From the IMG/VR virus record IMGVR_UViG_3300017963_000189: a DNA stretch of 64,000 bases; one strand, 5' to 3'. Both the position numbers and the translations under genes were made by a program. Source of the DNA: a virus. Lineage: Duplodnaviria > Caudoviricetes. Below, piece after piece: positions 3,269 through 41,260 of this stretch; the first letter of the stretch is position 1, and each line of letters begins with the position of its first letter. Under the pieces are notes generated by a model that was not told where the DNA came from, did not search any database, and worked only from the letters and a program-made list of their open reading frames with translations.

Positions 3269-3567
3269 AATTCCTCCGTCCATTGACAATGTTCATACGC
3301 ATCGTTTGAGCCTTCTTCATACTTTAGTTGCATAACTTCATCTATTTCATCTAAAAGTTCTTTGCTCAATTTTATACCAAATTCCACACAAGATTCTAAC
3401 TTAGCCATCAATACATTGTAACGATAATTTACTTCAGATAAAGTAACGTGTTGTATAAACTTTCCATCAATCCATAACTCCGCATCATAATATGGATATG
3501 AACCATCAATCTTTTTTACGTTACGATATTCTTTATCACGATACTTTTTTCCCATCTTTCTTTCCAT
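3265..3567 (-). CDS. Hypothetical protein
   Basis: Co-oriented ORF, overlaps neighbours. Confidence 0.6.
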   Translation of the reverse strand: MERKMGKKYRDKEYRNVKKIDGSYPYYDAELWIDGKFIQHVTLSEVNYRYNVLMAKLESCVEFGIKLSKELLDEIDEVMQLKYEEGSNDAYEHCQWTEEL

Positions 3568-3742
3568 AATTTATTTTACTTACATCATACTCACTTATTA
3601 TTTTTGACATTTCATTACATTTTTGGAGCCACAAAGCATCGTCCTTGAGTGTCGTTTTACCATCTTTCTTCTTTTCACGGTACTTCCTACTATACTCAAC
3701 AAACGACCTTATGACTTCCATTGTCTCTTTGTGTGTCGCCAT
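3536..3742 (-). CDS. Hypothetical protein
   Basis: Co-oriented ORF with GGAG SD. Confidence 0.6.
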   Translation of the reverse strand: MATHKETMEVIRSFVEYSRKYREKKKDGKTTLKDDALWLQKCNEMSKIISEYDVSKINYGKKDGKKVS

Positions 3743-4050: not shown

Positions 4051-4920
4051 TTAAAACTTTGTTCCACATTTCGGGCAGAATGCAAAATTCTTCTTTCTTC
4101 GTTTACCACACTGAGTACAATATTCTCGTGTCGCTTCTTGAATGTTTACTCGTTTTTTGGATAATGGAAAGATTTGAAATTCTTCAATGTGAGAAACCCA
4201 ACTTTCAAAATCAATATTCGTTTTATGGAATTTTTGTTTTGACTTTTTACCTTTCTCAATACGTCCAGTTTCTTCAGTTGGAACAGGTAAACTACATTGC
4301 ATTTCATCCCCAAGAGACACTTCCTTACAAGGATTTACATTACTTGTTGTAAATGAAATGTTATTATCACTACTATTTGAAATCGTTATCGTTCCACTTA
4401 AATTCGGATCAGCAGTATCTCCACCCGTATTACAATACCAATATGGTTCATATGGTGGGCAAGGCGTAATGTCTCGTTTATGGTAATGATGATGGTAAAT
4501 ATGAGTAGATACCGGTTGAATCAACCAATTAGGAAATTGTCTTTCCTTATAAAACTCGATCTTGACTTTACCATTTTCGGCGACCAAATGACCACGACCT
4601 TGTTCAATCTCATACGTCTCAAACTTGAACTTGTGTTTCTTCTTTCCACTCGCTGTTATATCAGGTGTGTCCAAAAATACGTGTTCACCAGGTTTCAAAA
4701 CTAATCCACTTTCGGATGTCTTTTCGCCGTTTAAACTGATCATGGCGAGCCATGTGTAGGGCGTACAGTTGTCCAACTCAATTTGGAATTCCGTTCCGTC
4801 AGCCATAAAGACCTGATTGTAAGGATAAGTTTTGATTCTGGATTTGTTAATTGTGATGTGCGCTGATGGATAATCCATAACAGCGACGGATGATGTGCTA
4901 ACGCGTCTGTGTTGTTTCAT
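4051..4920 (-). CDS. Hypothetical protein with C-terminal zinc ribbon
   Basis: CTQCG...FCPKCG at C-terminus; AGGAG SD. Confidence 0.75.
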   Translation of the reverse strand: MKQHRRVSTSSVAVMDYPSAHITINKSRIKTYPYNQVFMADGTEFQIELDNCTPYTWLAMISLNGEKTSESGLVLKPGEHVFLDTPDITASGKKKHKFKFETYEIEQGRGHLVAENGKVKIEFYKERQFPNWLIQPVSTHIYHHHYHKRDITPCPPYEPYWYCNTGGDTADPNLSGTITISNSSDNNISFTTSNVNPCKEVSLGDEMQCSLPVPTEETGRIEKGKKSKQKFHKTNIDFESWVSHIEEFQIFPLSKKRVNIQEATREYCTQCGKRRKKNFAFCPKCGTKF

Positions 4921-5052
4921 AGCAATTCTCCTTATTTATTTGATAAATACCTGCAAACCAATTCATGTCCCGTTGGAACATTCTAAAGTCACCATTAACT
5001 CTTGGCTAACAGATTGATGAATTACATATATAAATATATAAAAATTTATTTT

Positions 5053-8726: not shown

Positions 8727-10370
8727 TTAGAATTTATCCATAATAAAGTCACTCATTATAGATGGCGCGTTTGTGTCGAAACCAACAACGTCGAGTGAGC
8801 TTCTATCCTTTGGATCAGCAATAGTGAAACCATTCGATGCCATACCAACTACAACTAACTTGACATCGTGACCCACTTTATGACGATAACGATCCATTGC
8901 TTCGCTTGGTTGGATATTTCCTGCCCAAGTTTCATTATCGGTATATACAAAAATCGCGTCAAAATCCTTGTTCATACCAGCGGCCCACAATGCTGGTAAA
9001 GCACAATCAGTTCCACCAAAATCTAACCTGCTAACGTAATTATCCACATCATTCAAACTCATTCTATCGTGTAACTTCAATTCCGTTACATTAGTTAACG
9101 CTTGACCAGAACCATACCAACCACCACCGGTAAATCCAATAATACCCCAGTTCTTTTCAGCTTTCATCGTTACCATAGCCATTGCGGACGATGCGGAACG
9201 ACAACTGATAAATGGAGCGTTTTGAATACCACTACCCATAGAACCAGATACATCCAAAGCAATCAAGATTCTCTTACCCGTAGACTCAATGTTCTTGAAT
9301 GCTTTGTAAAATCCTGCGTCCAAAGCGGAAACGATTTGTGGTACAACGTTCCAAGTATTAGACCCACGAAAACCACGTCCTGCTTCATAGGTTTTCAAAG
9401 CCATTAATAATTGAATAGGATGTACACGTGCTTTCTTTAACGCTTCATCATTAGTGATCTTGTCAACCACTAAGTTGATTTCGTCAAAGTTACCACTTTC
9501 CAAGATACCAACTTTGGATAAGTTACCTAAATTACGAATTAACGCAGTCATAGGCATTGTTGGTAACAACGCTTCGTATACTTTCTTTCCTAAGAATTGT
9601 GTAGGAATAGCTTCCCGTGGCAAGTTATATTCCTTAATCAAGTTCACAATTTCCTTTTCATTTTCGGCTTTCTTTGCTAACTCAAAACCATAAATCATTG
9701 GAATTTTCCTATACTTCTCAATGTCGCCATTGATTCCTTGAGTAATCCAATGGAATACCTTGTTCATATCTTCATTGACGGCTTGTGCATGAGACTTACG
9801 TAAAATGTCACGGTGACTCCACCCGTCACGAGATTGATACTTGACTACTTGATACGCCAACTTGTTGATGTCCTTGTCGGTGTACCACTTGGCGAATGCC
9901 TTACGTAATCCACGACCCCAACCACGCATCGAGTTTACGAACTCTGTGAAATGGAATAAATGAGTACCAATACGTGCTACTTTACTCAAGTTGTCCAAAG
10001 CGTACTTCTTAGCTTCGTCAGTTCCATAGGAAGCAACCATCGCTAATACGAATAACGCTGGATCATTATTAGGTGCACGACCCTCTAAAGAAATCTCAAC
10101 TACACGATTTACAACTTCAATGCCATCTTCCTTGATTAACTTTTCAATGTTCTTAGCATTCTTCTTAGTTAACTTTTGCGCGGATGCGTAATAAGTTGGT
10201 TGATCGCTACCCAATACTAAGAAACGATTTAACTTATCCCACTTGTCCAACTTAAATGAGACGCCACCGCCATAATTCTTAGCCATATCTTTCTTACGAC
10301 CCTTGATTTTTTGGTTTTGTGGAGTTGCTACCTTAGTAGACTTGTTTAAAGTTTTGGTATAATTTTGCAT
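8727..10370 (-). CDS. rsr: Ro60/Rsr TROVE-domain RNA-binding protein with vWA domain
   Basis: FLVLGS..TYY, SRDGWSHRDIL, PMTALIRNL, IALDVSGSM, GGTDCALP, YTDNETWAG, FTIADP; start MQNYT at 10370 after AGGAGG. Confidence 0.95.
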   Translation of the reverse strand: MQNYTKTLNKSTKVATPQNQKIKGRKKDMAKNYGGGVSFKLDKWDKLNRFLVLGSDQPTYYASAQKLTKKNAKNIEKLIKEDGIEVVNRVVEISLEGRAPNNDPALFVLAMVASYGTDEAKKYALDNLSKVARIGTHLFHFTEFVNSMRGWGRGLRKAFAKWYTDKDINKLAYQVVKYQSRDGWSHRDILRKSHAQAVNEDMNKVFHWITQGINGDIEKYRKIPMIYGFELAKKAENEKEIVNLIKEYNLPREAIPTQFLGKKVYEALLPTMPMTALIRNLGNLSKVGILESGNFDEINLVVDKITNDEALKKARVHPIQLLMALKTYEAGRGFRGSNTWNVVPQIVSALDAGFYKAFKNIESTGKRILIALDVSGSMGSGIQNAPFISCRSASSAMAMVTMKAEKNWGIIGFTGGGWYGSGQALTNVTELKLHDRMSLNDVDNYVSRLDFGGTDCALPALWAAGMNKDFDAIFVYTDNETWAGNIQPSEAMDRYRHKVGHDVKLVVVGMASNGFTIADPKDRSSLDVVGFDTNAPSIMSDFIMDKF

Positions 10371-10410
10371 GATTCGACCCTCCTGTTTAAAGGTAAATGT
10401 TATATAAACT

Positions 10411-10439
10411 AAAAAACCCGACAAGATATTTGTCGGGTT
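10411..10439 (-). terminator. Intrinsic terminator between Y-like RNA and rsr start
   Basis: AACCCGACAA-N5-TTGTCGGGTT followed by T-run. Confidence 0.75.
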
Positions 10440-16541: not shown

Positions 16542-17041
16542 CTGTTTTCTAATATTATTTCCTTATGTCCAAATGCGAACTCTTTATCCATTATTTCATC
16601 TATCTTGAACCAACCTATTTCTGCAGTTTCATTTTCCTCATTATATTTATTTGTCAATTCTGGAAGTTTATCCACTTGTATAAAAAACCTATATCTCAAC
16701 GTAACATTTTGTTTGTTTTGAGCAACATCAGATGCTACATAATATGGTTGATGTACATTAAGTAGATTGTCGCTGAAATATTGTTTTATATTTAATCCCG
16801 TTTCTTCATATATCTCACGAACAACGGCTTCAACTCCGGATTCATTCCAATCAAGATAACCACATGGTAAATTCCAATAACCTTGATAATCCGGTGCACC
16901 TTGTCCGCGCTGATTAATCAAAACATATGTTTCGCCTTTACAACGAACAAAAACTAATCCCACGACGGCAATAGAACGAGAAATCCAATAGACTTGCCCT
17001 TCATGTTCAATCATTTTATTTTGTACGTTATTAAATTTCAT
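16538..17041 (-). CDS. Nudix hydrolase (ADP-ribose pyrophosphatase-like)
   Basis: LPCGYLDWNESGVEAVVREIYEETGL; start MKFNN after GGAG. Confidence 0.9.
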   Translation of the reverse strand: MKFNNVQNKMIEHEGQVYWISRSIAVVGLVFVRCKGETYVLINQRGQGAPDYQGYWNLPCGYLDWNESGVEAVVREIYEETGLNIKQYFSDNLLNVHQPYYVASDVAQNKQNVTLRYRFFIQVDKLPELTNKYNEENETAEIGWFKIDEIMDKEFAFGHKEIILENS

Positions 17042-20753: not shown

Positions 20754-20933
20754 TATTTATTCCTTTATTTTATATTTCTTTTTCGCCAATTTAAGATTTT
20801 GTGCGGTCGCTTTATCTTTTTCTTCATCACTTGTACAACCATAACATACATCTTCTGACATACCAAAAATAACTAAATTGATTTCTTCACCACACTTTTT
20901 ACATATCATAATTTATTCCTTTATTTTGTGTAG

Positions 20934-21004
20934 TCCGCCCACCGGGAATCGAACCCGAATAAGTGAGTTTAGAAGTCACTGTTCTACCATTGAACTATGG
21001 GCAG
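20934..21004 (-). tRNA. tRNA with CUA anticodon (amber suppressor)
   Basis: GTGAC-TTCTAAA-CTCAC; standard numbering from the D stem puts CTA at 34-36 (C31:C39 mismatch); normal D and T arms. Confidence 0.75.
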
Positions 21005-24875: not shown

Positions 24876-25001
24876 TGGTATTTGTAGGATTCGAACCTAA
24901 ATTCCGGTGTATCAGACCGACGTGTTACCGTGAGCGGTTATCCAATAAGATTAACCGGTCTCTTATTGGCTTCCCTTTGTGCTCTATTACACTACCATAC
25001 C
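24876..25001 (-). tRNA. tRNA-Ile(GAT) with ~57-nt insertion in the D loop
   Basis: GTGTAA[insert]GGTAACAC, anticodon arm TCGGT-CTGATAC-ACCGG, T loop TTCGAAT. Confidence 0.7.
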
Positions 25002-25482: not shown

Positions 25483-25486
25483 TAGT

Positions 25487-25604
25487 TGCGCGAGTAGGAT
25501 TCGAACCTACATCCTTCCTTTCCAATAAGATAACGTTTCTCCAGCGGCCCTGTTAGGACAAAAACGAAGCAACGGTTTTAGATGTTACCATTACACCATC
25601 GCGC
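25487..25604 (-). ncRNA. tRNA scaffold carrying a permuted Y-type helix in place of the anticodon loop
   Basis: Acceptor GCGCGA/TCGCGC, D arm GGTGTAATGGTAACATC, T arm GTAGG-TTCGAAT-CCTAC; insert CGTTGCTTCG-TTTT-GTCCT-AAC-AGGGC-CGC-TGGAGAAACG-TTATC. Confidence 0.7.
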
Positions 25605-25613
25605 AAATTAAAA

Positions 25614-27036: not shown

Positions 27037-27110
27037 CTCCACCGGTAGGATTCGAACCTACGACAAGTCGGTTAACAGCCGACCGCTCTACCTGACTGAG
27101 CTACAGTGGA
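27037..27110 (-). tRNA. trnN: tRNA-Asn(GTT)
   Basis: Cloverleaf, G73. Confidence 0.95.
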
Positions 27111-27113
27111 ATT

Positions 27114-27188
27114 TGGCTGGCCCGCCTGGACTTGAACCAGGAATGCTTGAGTCAAAGTCAAGTGTGTTGCCAATTACACCACGAGCCA
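27114..27188 (-). tRNA. trnQ: tRNA-Gln(TTG)
   Basis: Cloverleaf, U1:A72, encoded CCA. Confidence 0.95.
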
Positions 27189-27196
27189 ATTTCTTG

Positions 27197-27269
27197 TGGA
27201 GGCCCTGAGAATCGAACTCAGCTCTTCACGGGCTTCAACCGAACGCTTCACCAGGATAGCTTGACCTCC
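27197..27269 (-). tRNA. trnF: tRNA-Phe(GAA)
   Basis: Cloverleaf, loop TTGAAGC. Confidence 0.85.
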
Positions 27270-27276
27270 AAAAAAA

Positions 27277-27391
27277 ATGGGTAAGTGTCGAATAAGATAA
27301 ATCTCCCAAAGGGAGTTGTGGGGCTTGATCCCACGGCGATCCAGATTCGTAAATCCGACCGCCAACCAGGTAACCTTATCCATCGACCCAC
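27277..27391 (-). ncRNA. Y RNA-like RNA with tRNA-like internal domain
   Basis: GTGGGT-CGA-TGGATAAGG-TTACC ... TCTTATTC-GACACTT-ACCCAT; internal arms CGGTCGGA/TCTGGATCG, GTGGG/CCCAC, CTCCC/GGGAG. Confidence 0.7.
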
Positions 27392-27395
27392 TTAG

Positions 27396-27588
27396 TTCTC
27401 AGAGTTGGAATCGAACCAACTTCCGTACAAGGTTTATTGTAGTTACTTACTATTCACACATTGTTTATTTTTCAGGCCTCAATGTGTGGGCTTCACTACA
27501 ATCTCACTTGATTCTACTTAGATTCGGCTGATCGCGATCAGCAGGAACGATCTAAGTCAACGTGTCTTACCGCATAAACGATCCAAGA
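27396..27588 (-). ncRNA. tRNA scaffold (193 nt) with two inserted hairpins, one a permuted Y-type helix
   Basis: Acceptor TCTTGGA/TCTGAGA, T arm GTTGG-TTCGATT-CCAAC; insert ACTTAGAT-CGTTCCT-GCTGATC-GC-GATCAGC-CGA-ATCTAAGT. Confidence 0.65.
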
Positions 27589-27589
27589 G

Positions 27590-27664
27590 CGGAACCGACG
27601 GGACTTGAACCCGCAAGCCTTCGCCTTGACAGGGCGATGTGCTAACCAATTACACCACGGCTCC
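27590..27664 (-). tRNA. trnD: tRNA-Asp(GTC)
   Basis: Cloverleaf, G73. Confidence 0.93.
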
Positions 27665-27703
27665 AAATAAGAACAGTTTCACATCTTGTTCAGGATGTAA
27701 AAA

Positions 27704-28123
27704 TTACTGCAACAACGTCAGGTTCAGGAATGGGAAATGTCTTTTCAACTCAACTTCGTGTTTCAATAATACCTTAGCTTCCGGTTCCGCTTTCAATAAG
27801 ACATCTAAAGAATCGTAGTAAGTAACATCGTTGACTTCCGCTTCCCAGCCGTAGCAAGAACAGTGTCCGTCATACAATACTGCCCATCTACCATCTTTAG
27901 TTATTCCTATTTCAGTAGCGCCTTCTTCGTAATCATCCAAGTAAAACCCATCATACATTATCAACCACACTACTTCAACACCTTTCAACGCAAATTGTAA
28001 ACGATCAATGTTATCAACTCCAGATTCAATAGCATATTCCCCGTAGAATCCGTTGTCATAACTTTCCTGCAACGCTTTTTGTTGATAGTTGTACGCTTTT
28101 CTCCAAGTTTGTAAAGTTTTCAT
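27704..28123 (-). CDS. Hypothetical protein in tRNA array
   Basis: AGGAG SD; GHCSCYG motif. Confidence 0.7.
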   Translation of the reverse strand: MKTLQTWRKAYNYQQKALQESYDNGFYGEYAIESGVDNIDRLQFALKGVEVVWLIMYDGFYLDDYEEGATEIGITKDGRWAVLYDGHCSCYGWEAEVNDVTYYDSLDVLLKAEPEAKVLLKHEVELKRHFPFLNLTLLQ

Positions 28124-28990: not shown

Positions 28991-29067
28991 ATGAACAAGT
29001 ATTGTATTGGAAAGCGGGCATTAGCCCAACTCCATCATGAAAGGATAACCCAATACTTTCGGCTCAT
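28991..29067 (-). ncRNA. Y RNA-like RNA E (77 nt)
   Basis: ATGAGC-CGA-AAGTATTGGG-TTATC ... CCAATAC-AATACTT-GTTCAT. Confidence 0.75.
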
Positions 29068-29517: not shown

Positions 29518-29601
29518 ATGAGCAAATAGTTGTCAAGGAATAACCCCGAAGGGCTATTGGATTCGAACCAATTTAACCGATAACCTTAACATTCGGCTCA
29601 T
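29518..29601 (-). ncRNA. YrlA-like Y RNA F with T arm and UUCG-closed acceptor-like stem
   Basis: ATGAGC-CGA-ATGTTAAGG-TTATC, ATTGG-TTCGAAT-CCAAT, AGCCC-TTCG-GGGTT, CCTTGACA-ACTATTT-GCTCAT. Confidence 0.8.
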
Positions 29602-29764: not shown

Positions 29765-29836
29765 AAACGAACAAGAGTGACCAACGAGTTTTGTTCTTTT
29801 TGACAGGAAAGATAATCGTCAATCTTCGGCTCGTTT
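29765..29836 (-). ncRNA. Y RNA-like RNA G (72 nt)
   Basis: AAACGAGC-CGA-AGATTGACGA-TTATC ... TCGTTGGT-CACTCTT-GTTCGTTT. Confidence 0.75.
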
Positions 29837-29997: not shown

Positions 29998-30156
29998 TGC
30001 TCCGTTAAGGATTCGAACCTCGTTTAGTTATACCATGCTACACCTTGGCCCAGGACTTTGGTATAACCTACTCTTTCATCTTAGTGAACTGACTTGAATC
30101 AGTGTAGTAACTCAAGACTTCATTCTAAAACTATTAGACCATCTTCTAACCGGAAC
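29998..30156 (-). ncRNA. tRNA-like RNA (159 nt) with large central insertion
   Basis: Acceptor GTTCCG/CGGAGC, T loop TTCGAAT; hairpins CTTGAGT/ATTCAAG and GTTATACCA/TGGTATAAC. Confidence 0.55.
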
Positions 30157-30165
30157 ATATAAGGC

Positions 30166-30305
30166 TGCCTGAGGCCGGAATCGAACCGGCTTGAAAACCC
30201 ATTTCGTACTTTGTGGTTTTCTTTAGCGACCCCAGCGATTCTGTCTCAGTTAGTACGAACCAAAACATATTCTTTTCTGGGCGCCCCACTCCAGTGGGCT
30301 CGGGC
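30166..30305 (-). ncRNA. tRNA-like RNA (140 nt) with large central insertion
   Basis: Acceptor GCCCGAG/CTCAGGC, D arm CCCAC/GTGGG, T arm GCCGG-TTCGATT-CCGGC; insert TTCGTACT/AGTACGAA. Confidence 0.55.
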
Positions 30306-31439: not shown

Positions 31440-31446
31440 ATATTAG

Positions 31447-31630
31447 CTTCACGAGTGAGATTCGAACTCATTGTCTCAGTCGGGCACTTAACCGCATCGA
31501 CAGTTTAACTTGTCCAACTCTTATCCGGAAAAGAGTAGAAACGTTCATGTTTCGCGAGAACATTACTAAGTTTCCAGAGGAACTCACCGAAGAAAGTGAG
31601 CGACGATTCACCACATCGTCCAGTCGTGAA
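31447..31630 (-). ncRNA. tRNA-like RNA (184 nt) with 6-bp D stem and ~115-nt variable region
   Basis: TTCACGA/TCGTGAA, GACGAT/ATCGTC, GCTCAC/GTGAGT, TGAG-TTCGAAT-CTCA. Confidence 0.55.
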
Positions 31631-38153: not shown

Positions 38154-38401
38154 TTCTCTACCTCTTTTTTATATGTCGCCTGACACACTCGACAACGATA
38201 TACAATAGTATAATCAAGATACTGCCCATCGTCGTCCTCTTTAATCTCCAAACACTTCTCCGTATATAAGTGTTCCTCTTTACAATTATGCTCGCCAACA
38301 TATCGGGGACGCGGAACTACATCCACGTGCCCGATTGTTAACCCCAAATCCCTTAATTTCTTGTACTCTTTACTCAACATAAATAACCTTATTGAACTCA
38401 C
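38150..38401 (-). CDS. Hypothetical protein
   Basis: Co-oriented ORF, CRVC motif. Confidence 0.55.
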   Translation of the reverse strand: MSSIRLFMLSKEYKKLRDLGLTIGHVDVVPRPRYVGEHNCKEEHLYTEKCLEIKEDDDGQYLDYTIVYRCRVCQATYKKEVEK

Positions 38402-39431
38402 TCTTTAAAGATTGTTCACCTTTCTTGAATAATTTATATTGTTTACGGATAATTGATTCCGGTACAACTGATCTATCAACTCCATTTTCTATATCCTTGT
38501 TTACTCGTTCTAATGAAGTTTCTACATCAGATTCAAATACAACGGCTATCTTTTGCGCACCATTGAAATCAGCCATAAACTCAACTCTCAACCATTTATT
38601 TACATTGGTAGCATCCAAATACACTTTACCATATCTACGTAACGCGACTTTCATTCTTATTTTCGCGGTTGGCCAAACTTCAGCATTCATAGATTGATCG
38701 GAAACATCACCGGTCAACTCTCTACGAATATCGTCTGGCGAAACAATGTATTTTGGATCAACATTTTTTAAATAACGAGATTTACCTGAACCAGATATTC
38801 CAACCATTACATATACCTTTTTACTGGAATGTCTTTGTTTGAAATATACCCACTTTTCTTTGATAACGTTTTTCAACCTATCAGACCAATCGGATTCTTT
38901 CAAATATAATTGTTTGGATATAACCTTGTCAGCGGTAATAAAATCATCTAAATCGGGATCATCTTGTAACTTCTTGTGACCCGGATTCAAATCCATATGT
39001 TTATCAATCATACGATAAGTTAAATCATAATGTTTGATTCTATTTTTTATAGATTCTAAATACTTTATAGATTCTTTTGGATGTCCAAAAGCATATATAC
39101 GATCATTACCTACATTAGTCTTAGTTCCCTTACCATAATCATGTAAAAAAGCTGCTTCTAACAAATCAGGACGTTTTAATTTCCATACAGCCATTACTAC
39201 ATAATAAGTGTGATAAAAAGCATCAAACTCAGGGTGATGGTTCAAACCTTGTGGAACGCCCTCTAAAGCGTTTACAACCTTAGCGGTAATATCATATTCA
39301 CGTAACGCTCTTTTCCATTCCTCTATATAAGTAGCATTAGTAACAATTCTACGTTGTGGATATTCACGAACAATCGCCCGTGAACATAACCAAGTTTCAA
39401 CCAATATGTTTTTTAAACTTTGTTGTGCCAT
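38370..39431 (-). CDS. HD-domain phosphohydrolase fused to P-loop polynucleotide kinase (AAA_33)
   Basis: HH...HT...LHDYGK...GH; GISGSGKS, SPDDIRREL, LDATN. Confidence 0.85.
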   Translation of the reverse strand: MAQQSLKNILVETWLCSRAIVREYPQRRIVTNATYIEEWKRALREYDITAKVVNALEGVPQGLNHHPEFDAFYHTYYVVMAVWKLKRPDLLEAAFLHDYGKGTKTNVGNDRIYAFGHPKESIKYLESIKNRIKHYDLTYRMIDKHMDLNPGHKKLQDDPDLDDFITADKVISKQLYLKESDWSDRLKNVIKEKWVYFKQRHSSKKVYVMVGISGSGKSRYLKNVDPKYIVSPDDIRRELTGDVSDQSMNAEVWPTAKIRMKVALRRYGKVYLDATNVNKWLRVEFMADFNGAQKIAVVFESDVETSLERVNKDIENGVDRSVVPESIIRKQYKLFKKGEQSLKSEFNKVIYVE

Positions 39432-39471: not shown

Positions 39472-40080
39472 CTAAATGTCAAGTGTTTTTTTCAATATTT
39501 TTTCCTTTTCTAATACCTTATGTAACGCTTGTAAAATAAACAACTCATACTCTTTTCCTGCTCTCGCATACATATGAGTAATAACATTCTTTGGATCAAA
39601 ACCCTTTCGATATGGGCGATCCTGCGTCATAGCATCATAAACATCAACTATCGCTAATATCTGGGCGAGCCCGTTGAACTCCGTTCCCTTTAAACCATTT
39701 GGATAACCTGTACCATTCAACTTCTCATGATGTTGCTCAACTATCTCAGCTTCAGCATCCATACCAAGTGACCGTAAAATCGTAGCACTGTCTGATGGAT
39801 GTTGTTTGATACTCTCATATTCTTCGCCAGTTAATTTACCGGGTTTAAATAAAATACCCTTTGGTATCTTGATTTTTCCCACATCATGATAATACGCTGC
39901 ACGTGTTACCAGGTTCGCGGTTTTCAAGTCTAAACCCAACTCTTGGGCGACCATCTTAACAATCCTACCAACCCTTAAAGAATGTTTTTGGGTATAATCA
40001 GAGTCCTCTACGGCTTTCAGAAGACTCATTGTGATTAATACCCTTTGATAGTCTATTTCAAATTTAGTGTCCTTTGCCAT
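39472..40080 (-). CDS. HD-GYP domain phosphodiesterase
   Basis: HSLRV, HDVGKI, HHEKLNGTGYPNGL, DVYDAMT..RPYR. Confidence 0.92.
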   Translation of the reverse strand: MAKDTKFEIDYQRVLITMSLLKAVEDSDYTQKHSLRVGRIVKMVAQELGLDLKTANLVTRAAYYHDVGKIKIPKGILFKPGKLTGEEYESIKQHPSDSATILRSLGMDAEAEIVEQHHEKLNGTGYPNGLKGTEFNGLAQILAIVDVYDAMTQDRPYRKGFDPKNVITHMYARAGKEYELFILQALHKVLEKEKILKKTLDI

Positions 40081-41260
40081 TTATTTTCTCTACCAATAAA
40101 TTTTTTATTCGTTTTAATCCCTTTTGTTCGTACAATCCATGTATTACATCTATCGCCTTTAATTCAGGTTTATCTACCATAGTGAAAATAAATCCAACTC
40201 GATCACGTTTGATTTTATCTTGTATCTCTAACGCTAACTCTTTACGAGACATTTCAGGCGCTCTTTTTCTATAATACTCACCCTCTTTAGATAAATATTC
40301 AATCAATTCAAAATACCTTTTTTTCAACAACTTATATTCTTCTTTTACGGAATCAGGTAACTTGTCCAAATATACTTCAAATTCTTCTTCCTCGTTGTCC
40401 AATAAAACACCTACCAAGTTGTTAGTCACACCCTCGCCAGTAGCTACATGGTGTAAATGAACATACTTTGGCGACTTAACTTTTACTCGACCAACTACTA
40501 AATCATCTTTGAACTGAACAACTATAAATCCCTCAAATCCATTTCCCTTTTCATTCTCTTTATCAGCAATTTCAGATAATTCGGAAACATCCTTAACATC
40601 TTTCAAATCAAACAATCTTGGAAAACGTATAGAATATCCCTTGAACATCTTTTCGTATTTCTTCTTTATGGATTTATGGAATATATTAAAGTCACGTAAT
40701 TCACCATCGTTTTCTTTTAAACCAATGAAAACTAACTCTTTTACGCCTTCATAATCAACTACTATTTGATTTGATGGATGTACCAACTCAAACATATAAG
40801 TCAAATTTGGCGAAAATTCCGCAGTTAACTTTTCAAAATCTTCTTTAGAAACTACATCAAAGAAAATCTTGGAAAAAGAAATTCCATCCATATTAGACGC
40901 ATCATCAGCATCAATAGTTCCATTAGTTGCTACTCTCCATTCACCATCATAAAAATATACTTTTATAATAGAACCATCTACCTTTTCAACTACATAAGAA
41001 TCATCTAATATCAAATTGTAAGCATATATTTCACCGTAGTTGAAAAACTTATCAAATGGATGCGCAACTATATTCCAAGTTCCCTTTTCTAATATGATAC
41101 CACGAGATTCTTTTACAATCTTGTTAGAGAAATCGGAATTAAACTGATTATACTTGAATATAACTAAGTTATCCTTAGCATTAATATGCAAGTTGAACGG
41201 GTCTTTACGTAAATCATCTAAAGACCGTATTTTCAATATTTTTTGTAAGTTCAATTTCAC
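40064..41260 (-). CDS. T4 Rnl1-family RNA ligase
   Basis: ESRGIIL, PFDKFFNYGE, EKVDGSII, FELV, EGFIVV, VKVKS. Confidence 0.88.
   Translation of the reverse strand: MKLNLQKILKIRSLDDLRKDPFNLHINAKDNLVIFKYNQFNSDFSNKIVKESRGIILEKGTWNIVAHPFDKFFNYGEIYAYNLILDDSYVVEKVDGSIIKVYFYDGEWRVATNGTIDADDASNMDGISFSKIFFDVVSKEDFEKLTAEFSPNLTYMFELVHPSNQIVVDYEGVKELVFIGLKENDGELRDFNIFHKSIKKKYEKMFKGYSIRFPRLFDLKDVKDVSELSEIADKENEKGNGFEGFIVVQFKDDLVVGRVKVKSPKYVHLHHVATGEGVTNNLVGVLLDNEEEEFEVYLDKLPDSVKEEYKLLKKRYFELIEYLSKEGEYYRKRAPEMSRKELALEIQDKIKRDRVGFIFTMVDKPELKAIDVIHGLYEQKGLKRIKNLLVEKINGKGH

Follow-up and report, generated by a model that had tools for sequence, protein, structure and literature searches.

A tRNA-shaped RNA with a Y-RNA-like module in the tRNA array of a Ro60-encoding phage

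What is a 193-nt RNA with the acceptor, D and T arms of a tRNA, and two long hairpins between them, doing in the tRNA array of a phage that also encodes Ro60? The original prediction had described it as a tRNA-Y RNA chimera. We analysed it within a 64-kb stretch of phage DNA (the window), which is AT-rich (~34% GC), has all its genes on the minus strand and contains 42 tRNA genes called by ARAGORN, an amber-reading one (cta, 20933-21004) among them. A Ro60 protein identical to the one in the window is recorded on a 309-kb contig, and the window is therefore part of a jumbo phage. The phage is marine, and the window sequence matches a sediment/seawater metagenome data set, in which the DNA reads over 27222-27750 gave one identical contig with no variants or joints (two runs, apparently one data set filed twice). 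The features of the window on which the analysis draws are the following.

8727-10424, minus strand: phage Ro60/Rsr gene (TROVE PF05731, 2.5e-39; Ro60 vWA PF25045, 2.7e-56)
25486-25605, minus strand: first tRNA-shaped Y-like RNA of the phage, with the permuted module GUCC-UAACA-GGGC-CGC (25.4 bits with model R1, see below)
27277-27391, minus strand: YrlA-like RNA Y4, with GGGUCGA, a T-like arm GUGGG-AUCAAGC-CCCAC and a closed acceptor-like stem
27396-27588, minus strand: the whole tRNA-shaped RNA, 193 nt (RNA position n = 27589 - n)
38370-39431: HD + AAA_33 protein, kinase-like
40064-41260: T4 Rnl1-type RNA ligase

The gene for the 193-nt RNA lies in the densest stretch of the tRNA array, with a tRNA-Asp gene (27589-27664) 1 nt upstream and Y4, which probably shares its transcript, 2 nt downstream. 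The Ro60 gene is in the same window at a distance of 16-17 kb, and the two are thus not adjacent. A promoter and terminator scan gave no signal particular to the 193-nt RNA, and the ORFs overlapping the region, which are short, mostly antisense and in no case notable, were disregarded. The homolog search that had been suggested as a check returned a single orthologue, at 921-1114 of another phage contig (G001, IMGVR_UViG_3300033153_006492), directly after tRNA-Ile(UAU) and with an upstream spacer of ~1 nt. This contig is syntenic with the window and also carries a Ro60 gene, whose product is about 64-65% identical to that of the window. From the two orthologues we built a covariance model, R1, which scores the window copy at 219 bits and the G001 copy at 223 bits.

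An RNA with tRNA acceptor, D and T arms was indeed found at 27396-27588, on the minus strand, and it is composed of the elements listed here in the order of the RNA.

27582-27588, minus strand: acceptor stem, 5' strand UCUUGGA (RNA 1-7; pairs with 27397-27403)
27564-27579, minus strand: D arm GUUU-AUGCGGUA-AGAC (RNA 10-25; U8 precedes)
27516-27557, minus strand: hairpin H1, a permuted Y-RNA-like module (RNA 32-73)
27523-27528, minus strand: GCCGAA, where helix A meets the internal loop; fits GNCGAA, the core of the Ro60-associated motif known from the literature
27507-27510 with 27428-27431, minus strand: stem P, 4 bp, CAAG/CUUG (RNA 79-82/158-161)
27436-27502, minus strand: hairpin H2, at the position of a giant variable arm (RNA 87-153)
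27404-27420, minus strand: T arm GUUGG-UUCGAUU-CCAAC with a canonical T loop (RNA 169-185)
27396-27403, minus strand: acceptor stem, 3' strand UCUGAGA (RNA 186-192), and discriminator A

The acceptor stem has 7 bp, two of them G.U, and is followed by no encoded CCA. Positions 8-9 are U8 and C9, and the tRNA-like domain is represented by the T arm, the D arm (GUUU/AGAC), U8, A14 and A21. Three linkers join the arms: 6 nt at RNA 26-31, AGAAU at 74-78 and UACGGAA at 162-168. The first hairpin, H1, reads ACUUAGAU-CGUUCCU-GCUGAU-CGCG-AUCAGC-CGA-AUCUAAGU and consists of an 8-bp helix B (ACUUAGAU/AUCUAAGU), a 7x3 internal loop in which the pyrimidine-rich CGUUCCU faces CGA, and a 6-bp helix A (GCUGAU/AUCAGC). 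All of the strings that had been quoted for this hairpin are present; its loop, given before as 'GC', is really a CGCG tetraloop on the 6-bp stem. The second hairpin, H2, whose quoted strands were likewise recovered on the minus strand (AUUGUAGU/ACUACAAU and CACACAUUG/CAAUGUGUG), has an 8-bp base stem, an internal loop, a 9-bp apical stem and a 16-nt loop. It makes up one third of the RNA, and together with stem P forms an extra arm of 83 nt.

The junction between these elements can be drawn in another way, as an alternative pairing of minimum free energy, CAC.UUG/CAAGUG, would extend H1 into an 'anticodon stem'. We prefer stem P because the G001 orthologue keeps it (CAAG/CUUG to UAAG/CUUA) better than it keeps CAC.UUG/CAAGUG, a choice for which two sequences are too few to be decisive. 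At the level of DNA, helix A is a perfect 16-nt palindrome, GCTGATCGCGATCAGC, with two GATC sites (27527-27542); the G001 orthologue is non-palindromic, and the palindrome is therefore probably incidental. In both copies of H2 (27436-27502, minus strand; L003 1006-1075), GUGAA directly follows the 5' base-stem strand and GUGAAUA directly follows the apical stem. These blocks could form a conserved purine-rich internal loop, perhaps with tandem G.A pairs, and so be a site of protein or tertiary contact.

GNCGAA(N0-1)G is the conserved motif of bacterial and phage YrlA/YrlB RNAs and has been related to GGUCCGA, the sequence that Ro60 contacts (Chen et al. 2014, PMC4201824), and the Ro60-binding RNAs of Thermus phage phiLo were found via a CGAA-bearing internal bulge between two stems (PMC12135203). 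The GCCGAA of H1 fits GNCGAA and is kept in G001, with C in place of the trailing G of the motif in the window copy, and it sits in a bulged helix between two stems, formed by helix A, the loop of CGA against 7 nt, and helix B. In three linear Y-like RNAs of the window (28991-29067, 29518-29601 and 29765-29836), a second helix comes after GAGC-CGA(A), which faces the 7-nt pyrimidine-rich strands AAUACUU, ACUAUUU and CACUCUU. The corresponding part of H1 is AGC-CGA followed by helix B, facing CGUUCCU (CGCCUUU in G001), so that the likeness to a GAGC-CGA-A subfamily drawn in the original prediction holds for the 3x7 context. It does not extend to the bases before the motif, which are CA (CAGC) here and GR in the copies typical of Ro60 loci (GRGC). 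In the same way, the CGA facing a pyrimidine strand has the geometry described, but the classical Y helix is the better reading. This helix is exact in G001, with a bulged C (CAG[C]CGAA/UUUG-CUG; C-G, G.U, A-U, A-U), whereas in the window the strand facing CGAA is CCUG and allows two of the four classical pairs (C-G, G.U).

In H1 it is helix A that is capped, by the CGCG tetraloop, and the termini of the RNA lie at the acceptor stem, not at the motif helix. H1 is thus a circularly permuted Y-RNA module. In linear Y RNAs it is the termini that form this helix, the docking site of Ro60; here a loop caps it, and the other end of the module opens into the tRNA body. This is the permutation that had been proposed for the GCCGAA helix, and the RNA at 25486-25605 has it as well. 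The Rfam model of YrlA (RF02553) has no match on 27396-27588 at E<=10, and its sole weak match, of 24.1 bits against a gathering score of 69, falls on tRNA genes at 27085-27143. GCCGAA itself is not enriched in the window (20 found, 13.8 expected); five minus-strand copies, at 27.5-31.7 kb, are within the tRNA array or next to it. With a strict structural descriptor (a loop-closed helix ending in G-C, CGA[AT], a 6-bp outer helix and an opposite strand of 4-8 nt), the site in the 193-nt RNA is the only one in the window (128 kb counting both strands, 0.26 expected from shuffled sequence), and the G001 orthologue is found too. A relaxed descriptor gives two sites in the window, H1 and 25536-25572, both within tRNA scaffolds, a count that alone is not significant since the background is 1.15 per shuffled window.

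All helices are retained in the G001 orthologue, with a total of seven double compensatory changes. Two of these are in the acceptor stem (G.U to C-G; G-C to U.G), one in helix B (A-U to U-A, as aligned by RNAalifold), one in stem P (C-G to U-A) and three in the base stem of H2 (A-U to G-C, U-A to C-G, A-U to C-G). The apical half of H2 cannot be aligned between the two phages, yet forms a hairpin in both. [quoted passage not shown] The longest identical runs are the 13-nt AUCAGCCGAAUCU in H1 and CGGAAGUUGGUUC at the T arm, and the single-stranded blocks ACACG, AAAC and CGGAA are also identical. This covariation comes from two sequences only. The fold energy is modest: -49.4 kcal/mol, with z = -2.3 against shuffled sequences for the window copy and z = -0.8 for the G001 copy. 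It is conservation rather than fold energy that lifts the 193-nt RNA above chance, and the retention of helices through double compensatory changes is the mark of a structure under selection, unlike a decaying tRNA gene.

The RNA has a narrow distribution. Megablast and blastn searches of GenBank phages left it unmatched, and an exact scan of IMG/VR with a 32-mer from H1 returned none. A similar scan with the 14-mer TCAGCCGAATCTAA gave more than 116 chance matches, G001 alone being real, and one with the T-arm block gave eight matches, seven of which are ordinary tRNAs. Two metagenome scans yielded 0 matches and 2 false matches. Model R1 found no match in a 292-kb relative (G002; searched directly over 60 kb, with a large tRNA array), nor in 49 further Ro60 phage records, for which the first-pass filter was possibly lossy. 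The array of G002 also includes an amber-reading tRNA (cta), like the window, and a tRNA called by ARAGORN with a four-base anticodon (caga; L224, G002:C1:65001-85000, 16704-16779, minus strand). Among relatives identified through neighbouring ORFs, the contigs that share the 80-aa ORF (L134, L135) begin just downstream of the expected site of the RNA, and none of those that share the 139-aa ORF (L136-L143) has the RNA. The closest view is given by L136, a close relative in which the 139-aa neighbour ORF is 84% identical. There the order is tRNA-Asp, Y4, tRNA-Phe, with Y4 (3539-3677; 84% identity over 74 nt) directly after tRNA-Asp and no room for the 193-nt RNA, which is thus an insertion/deletion difference between close relatives. 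With two known genomes and this absence from a close relative, we regard the RNA as an accessory variant and not as a general design element.

Such dispensability is what would be expected of a decaying tRNA pseudogene or array filler, at most a structured spacer for the processing of its neighbours. The RNA is missing at the syntenic site of L136 and from G002, occupies a different array position in G001, after tRNA-Ile, and folds with the modest z-scores given above. We nevertheless consider it very unlikely that it is a remnant of this kind. Seven double compensatory changes keep five helices at a divergence where Ro60 is ~64-65% identical, both phages have the exact 7-bp acceptor geometry and the 1-nt spacing, and conservation includes the unpaired ACACG, AAAC and CGGAA.

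Does the RNA then decode? ARAGORN does not call it, also in intron mode (-i), and the Rfam tRNA model (RF00005) does not match it at the gathering score or at E<=10; with all of these missing it, the RNA is not for translation. An anticodon arm with a 7-nt loop and U33 cannot be rebuilt in it, and no parent tRNA of the scaffold was identified. Model R1 aligns genuine tRNAs through their acceptor, D and T arms. An interrupted tRNA gene would escape this argument, if one or two introns or inserts were removed, perhaps via the phage ligase and kinase, to leave a tRNA with, for example, a UUA/UAG anticodon from ACUUAGA. That heptamer does come after a possible 5-nt stem strand, CGUUG, and the phage has the Rnl1-like and HD/AAA_33 proteins. 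As an anticodon loop, however, ACUUAGA was rejected, being the 5' strand of the covarying 8-bp helix B, and CGUUG was rejected as the stem strand, having no conserved 3' partner: the sole candidate, UAACU/UAUCG, sits inside the covarying base stem of H2. ARAGORN -i does call two other scaffolds of the window as intron-bearing tRNAs, 31446-31630 (tRNA-Asp(GUC), with a 95-nt insert) and 25485-25605. No bulge-helix-bulge motif was seen by eye, no Rfam family, group I and II introns included, matches the RNA at E<=10, and the inserts of 42 and 83 nt are far below self-splicing size. We therefore regard removal of the inserts to give a decoding tRNA as a remote prospect, and the 193-nt RNA as very probably a functional, non-decoding RNA in the shape of a tRNA.

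We examined 80 IMG/VR loci centred on phage Ro60 genes, out of 262 such contigs that exist. The top two NNNNCGAA 8-mers on the Ro60 strand of these loci are GGGCCGAA and GAGCCGAA (29 and 26, versus 11 and 7 on the opposite strand), and the CAGC form, CAGCCGAA, is not strand-enriched near Ro60 genes (6 versus 15). In two of the loci (L153 and L155, 1503-1990, plus strand), six GGGCCGAA/GGGTCGAT motifs, spaced by ~70-130 nt, lie just upstream of Ro60 and have the look of short Y-like RNAs arrayed in tandem. Applied to the Ro60 loci, the relaxed descriptor found full tRNA scaffolds, with both D and T arms, in three lineages.

L181 1580-1706, plus strand: tRNA-shaped RNA; Ro60 match from 2001
L203 1594-1726, plus strand: tRNA-shaped RNA, with CCA after the discriminator; Ro60 match from 2001
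L209/L212 1485-1608, plus strand: tRNA-shaped RNA; Ro60 match from 2001

These RNAs have 7-bp acceptor stems (GUGGUCG/CGACCAC, GGCGUGG/CCACGCC and AGAGGGG/CCCCUCU, in the same order) and a loop-closed GRGC-CGA module in place of the anticodon arm. Each is on the Ro60 strand, 280-400 nt upstream of that gene, with linear Y-like RNAs following it. The same design beside Ro60 in three other phage lineages is therefore not accidental, and it is genomic association that ties the tRNA-shaped design to Ro60. The earlier view that the tRNA-Y chimera is a design and not an accident thus stands for the architecture, which recurs beside Ro60 genes, and less so for the 193-nt RNA itself, which is an accessory found in two genomes.

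The scaffold is also used for other cargo. The phage has no fewer than five further tRNA scaffolds, with large inserts that are unrelated, among them 24876-25001, 29998-30157, 30160-30305 (minus strand) and 31446-31630. The 30160-30305 scaffold, with its large insert, is 88% identical over 143 nt to 632-773 of L136 and so is conserved too, as are Y4, Y5, Y6 and Y7 in the same relative. The G001 contig has a further RNA of this kind (L130, G001:C1, 4746-4936, plus strand), a 191-nt tRNA-like RNA with canonical D and T arms, an insert of ~110 nt at the variable-arm position and an anticodon-like arm whose 7-nt loop, GCGAAAG, has CGAA inside and lacks U33; model R1 scores it at 29.9 bits, higher than true tRNAs.

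That the scaffold is not specific to Y modules, as these inserts and the RNA at G001 4746-4936 indicate, leads to another reading, in which the 193-nt RNA is a stable tRNA-scaffolded noncoding RNA whose H1 and H2 serve a partner other than Ro60 (for example an RNA target, or a phage or host protein of tRNA processing, repair or defence) and whose GCCGAA is coincidental or convergent. The departure of the motif from the Ro60-linked GRGYCGAA, the lack of UUAYC and the size of H2, one third of the RNA and without known counterpart, would fit such a partner. Against it, the 13-nt block around GCCGAA is the best-conserved part of the insert, the 3x7 loop and its orientation match the linear Y-like RNAs of the same phage, and the same module stands in the scaffolds beside Ro60 in three other lineages. 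A partner other than Ro60 is accordingly plausible but unlikely. On balance we favour, with moderate confidence, the interpretation of the 193-nt RNA as a non-decoding, tRNA-shaped Y RNA, a tRNA mimic of the YrlA type in an 'un-permuted' topology with Ro60 as its partner.

For an RNA of this type we infer expression, processing by RNase P and CCA addition, binding by Ro60 and a downstream effector, in a scheme that can be outlined as follows. The tRNA body, with its acceptor, U8, D and T arms, would most likely be a processing and stability cassette, from which RNase P and the 3'-end/CCA machinery could excise the RNA precisely out of a polycistronic transcript of the tRNA array and which would guard it against exonucleases. 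The short spacers on either side, of 1-2 nt in both phages, fit processing by RNase P and at the 3' end. The tRNA elbow and acceptor end would then be offered to tRNA-binding factors. Phage Ro60 (8727-10424) would dock on H1 through helix A, GCCGAA, helix B and the facing 7-nt pyrimidine strand, and the tRNA body and H2, placed over or beside the Ro60 ring, might act as a gating, tethering or effector part. During infection, this could connect Ro60 with a partner in tRNA handling or RNA decay. In view of the ligase and kinase that the phage encodes, one may speculate on a link to tRNA repair or to the evasion of tRNA-targeting defences.

A bolder and, in our estimate, rather improbable generalization is that Y RNAs in true tRNA topology form a class of their own in Ro60 phages, their acceptor end being open and CCA-capable and the Ro60 docking helix standing where the anticodon arm would be. 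The 193-nt RNA would then be an enlarged representative, with another partner recruited by its 83-nt variable arm. If this were so, RNAs of this class could undergo processing, CCA tailing and perhaps charging in the manner of tRNAs. They would couple Ro60 to the machinery of tRNA maturation, repair or translation, or be uncleavable decoys for anticodon nucleases, and their existence would suggest that mimics of the YrlA type arose via conversion of the anticodon arm of a tRNA, not from dimeric tRNA transcripts. Whatever their role, these genes illustrate that phage 'tRNA arrays' hold structured non-tRNA genes skipped by standard annotation.

Class II tRNAs (Leu, Ser, Tyr) have an extra arm between the position of the anticodon arm and the T arm, which in natural tRNAs measures 13-21 nt. 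The 193-nt RNA has its extra arm in the same place, but of 83 nt, and lacks an anticodon loop. In engineered 'tRNA scaffolds', a foreign RNA replaces the anticodon arm and the cell processes and protects the product like a tRNA. The RNAs at 25486-25605 and in L181, L203 and L209 have, like the 193-nt RNA, an open 7-bp acceptor and D and T arms. Instead of an anticodon arm, they too have helix B, followed by a pyrimidine strand, helix A closed by a loop and ending in G-C, CG(A/C) and helix B again. They measure 118-135 nt, have GRGC before CG and mostly GGUUAUC after the module. The 193-nt RNA is longer, has CAGC and the extra P/H2 arm, and shares no sequence homology with them beyond the scaffold; UUAYC, an element of the other Y-like RNAs, occurs nowhere within it, in line with the missing TTAYC tail of the original prediction. 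It adds a second, independent sequence of the same design, with a large extra domain, from two genomes only.

Yrl1 and Yrl2 of Thermus phage phiLo bind the Ro60 of that phage (PMC12135203). They resemble the 193-nt RNA in being encoded by a phage together with a phage Ro60 and in the layout of stem, CGAA internal bulge and stem. They are linear and hairpin-type, adjoin the Ro60 gene, have no described tRNA scaffold and were assayed for binding. A literature search returned no description of Y RNAs in tRNA topology, the closest being the account of YrlA as a permuted tRNA, in which the acceptor is closed and the Ro60 module projects from where the anticodon stem would be (PMC4201824; crystal structure, Wang et al. 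2018, bioRxiv 10.1101/312249). In Mycobacterium smegmatis, YrlA with its 7-bp acceptor stem is cleaved by RNase P and receives CCA (PMC4201824), and known Y RNAs tether Ro60 to PNPase (PMC4201824, PMC12135203). With the acceptor stem closed, most known YrlA RNAs cannot be handled as tRNAs, and RNAs that combine real tRNA ends with a Ro60 helix would be a natural experiment on the role of the tRNA-like half of Y RNAs, in which RNase P cleavage, CCA tailing, charging and the recruitment of a tRNA-binding factor to Ro60 can be asked about directly. YrlA (RF02553) and the 193-nt RNA are alike in their tRNA-like L-shaped body, in a Ro60-type module at the position of the anticodon stem, in GNCGAA and in the Ro60 orthologue of the genome. 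Unlike YrlA, the 193-nt RNA has the 83-nt P/H2 arm, is without the trailing G of the motif and UUAYC, and is encoded in a tRNA array 17 kb from Ro60, where YrlA lies beside it. The topologies of the two are the converse of each other: YrlA has its termini at the Ro60 helix and a loop on the acceptor, and the 193-nt RNA has its termini at the acceptor and a loop on the Ro60-type helix.
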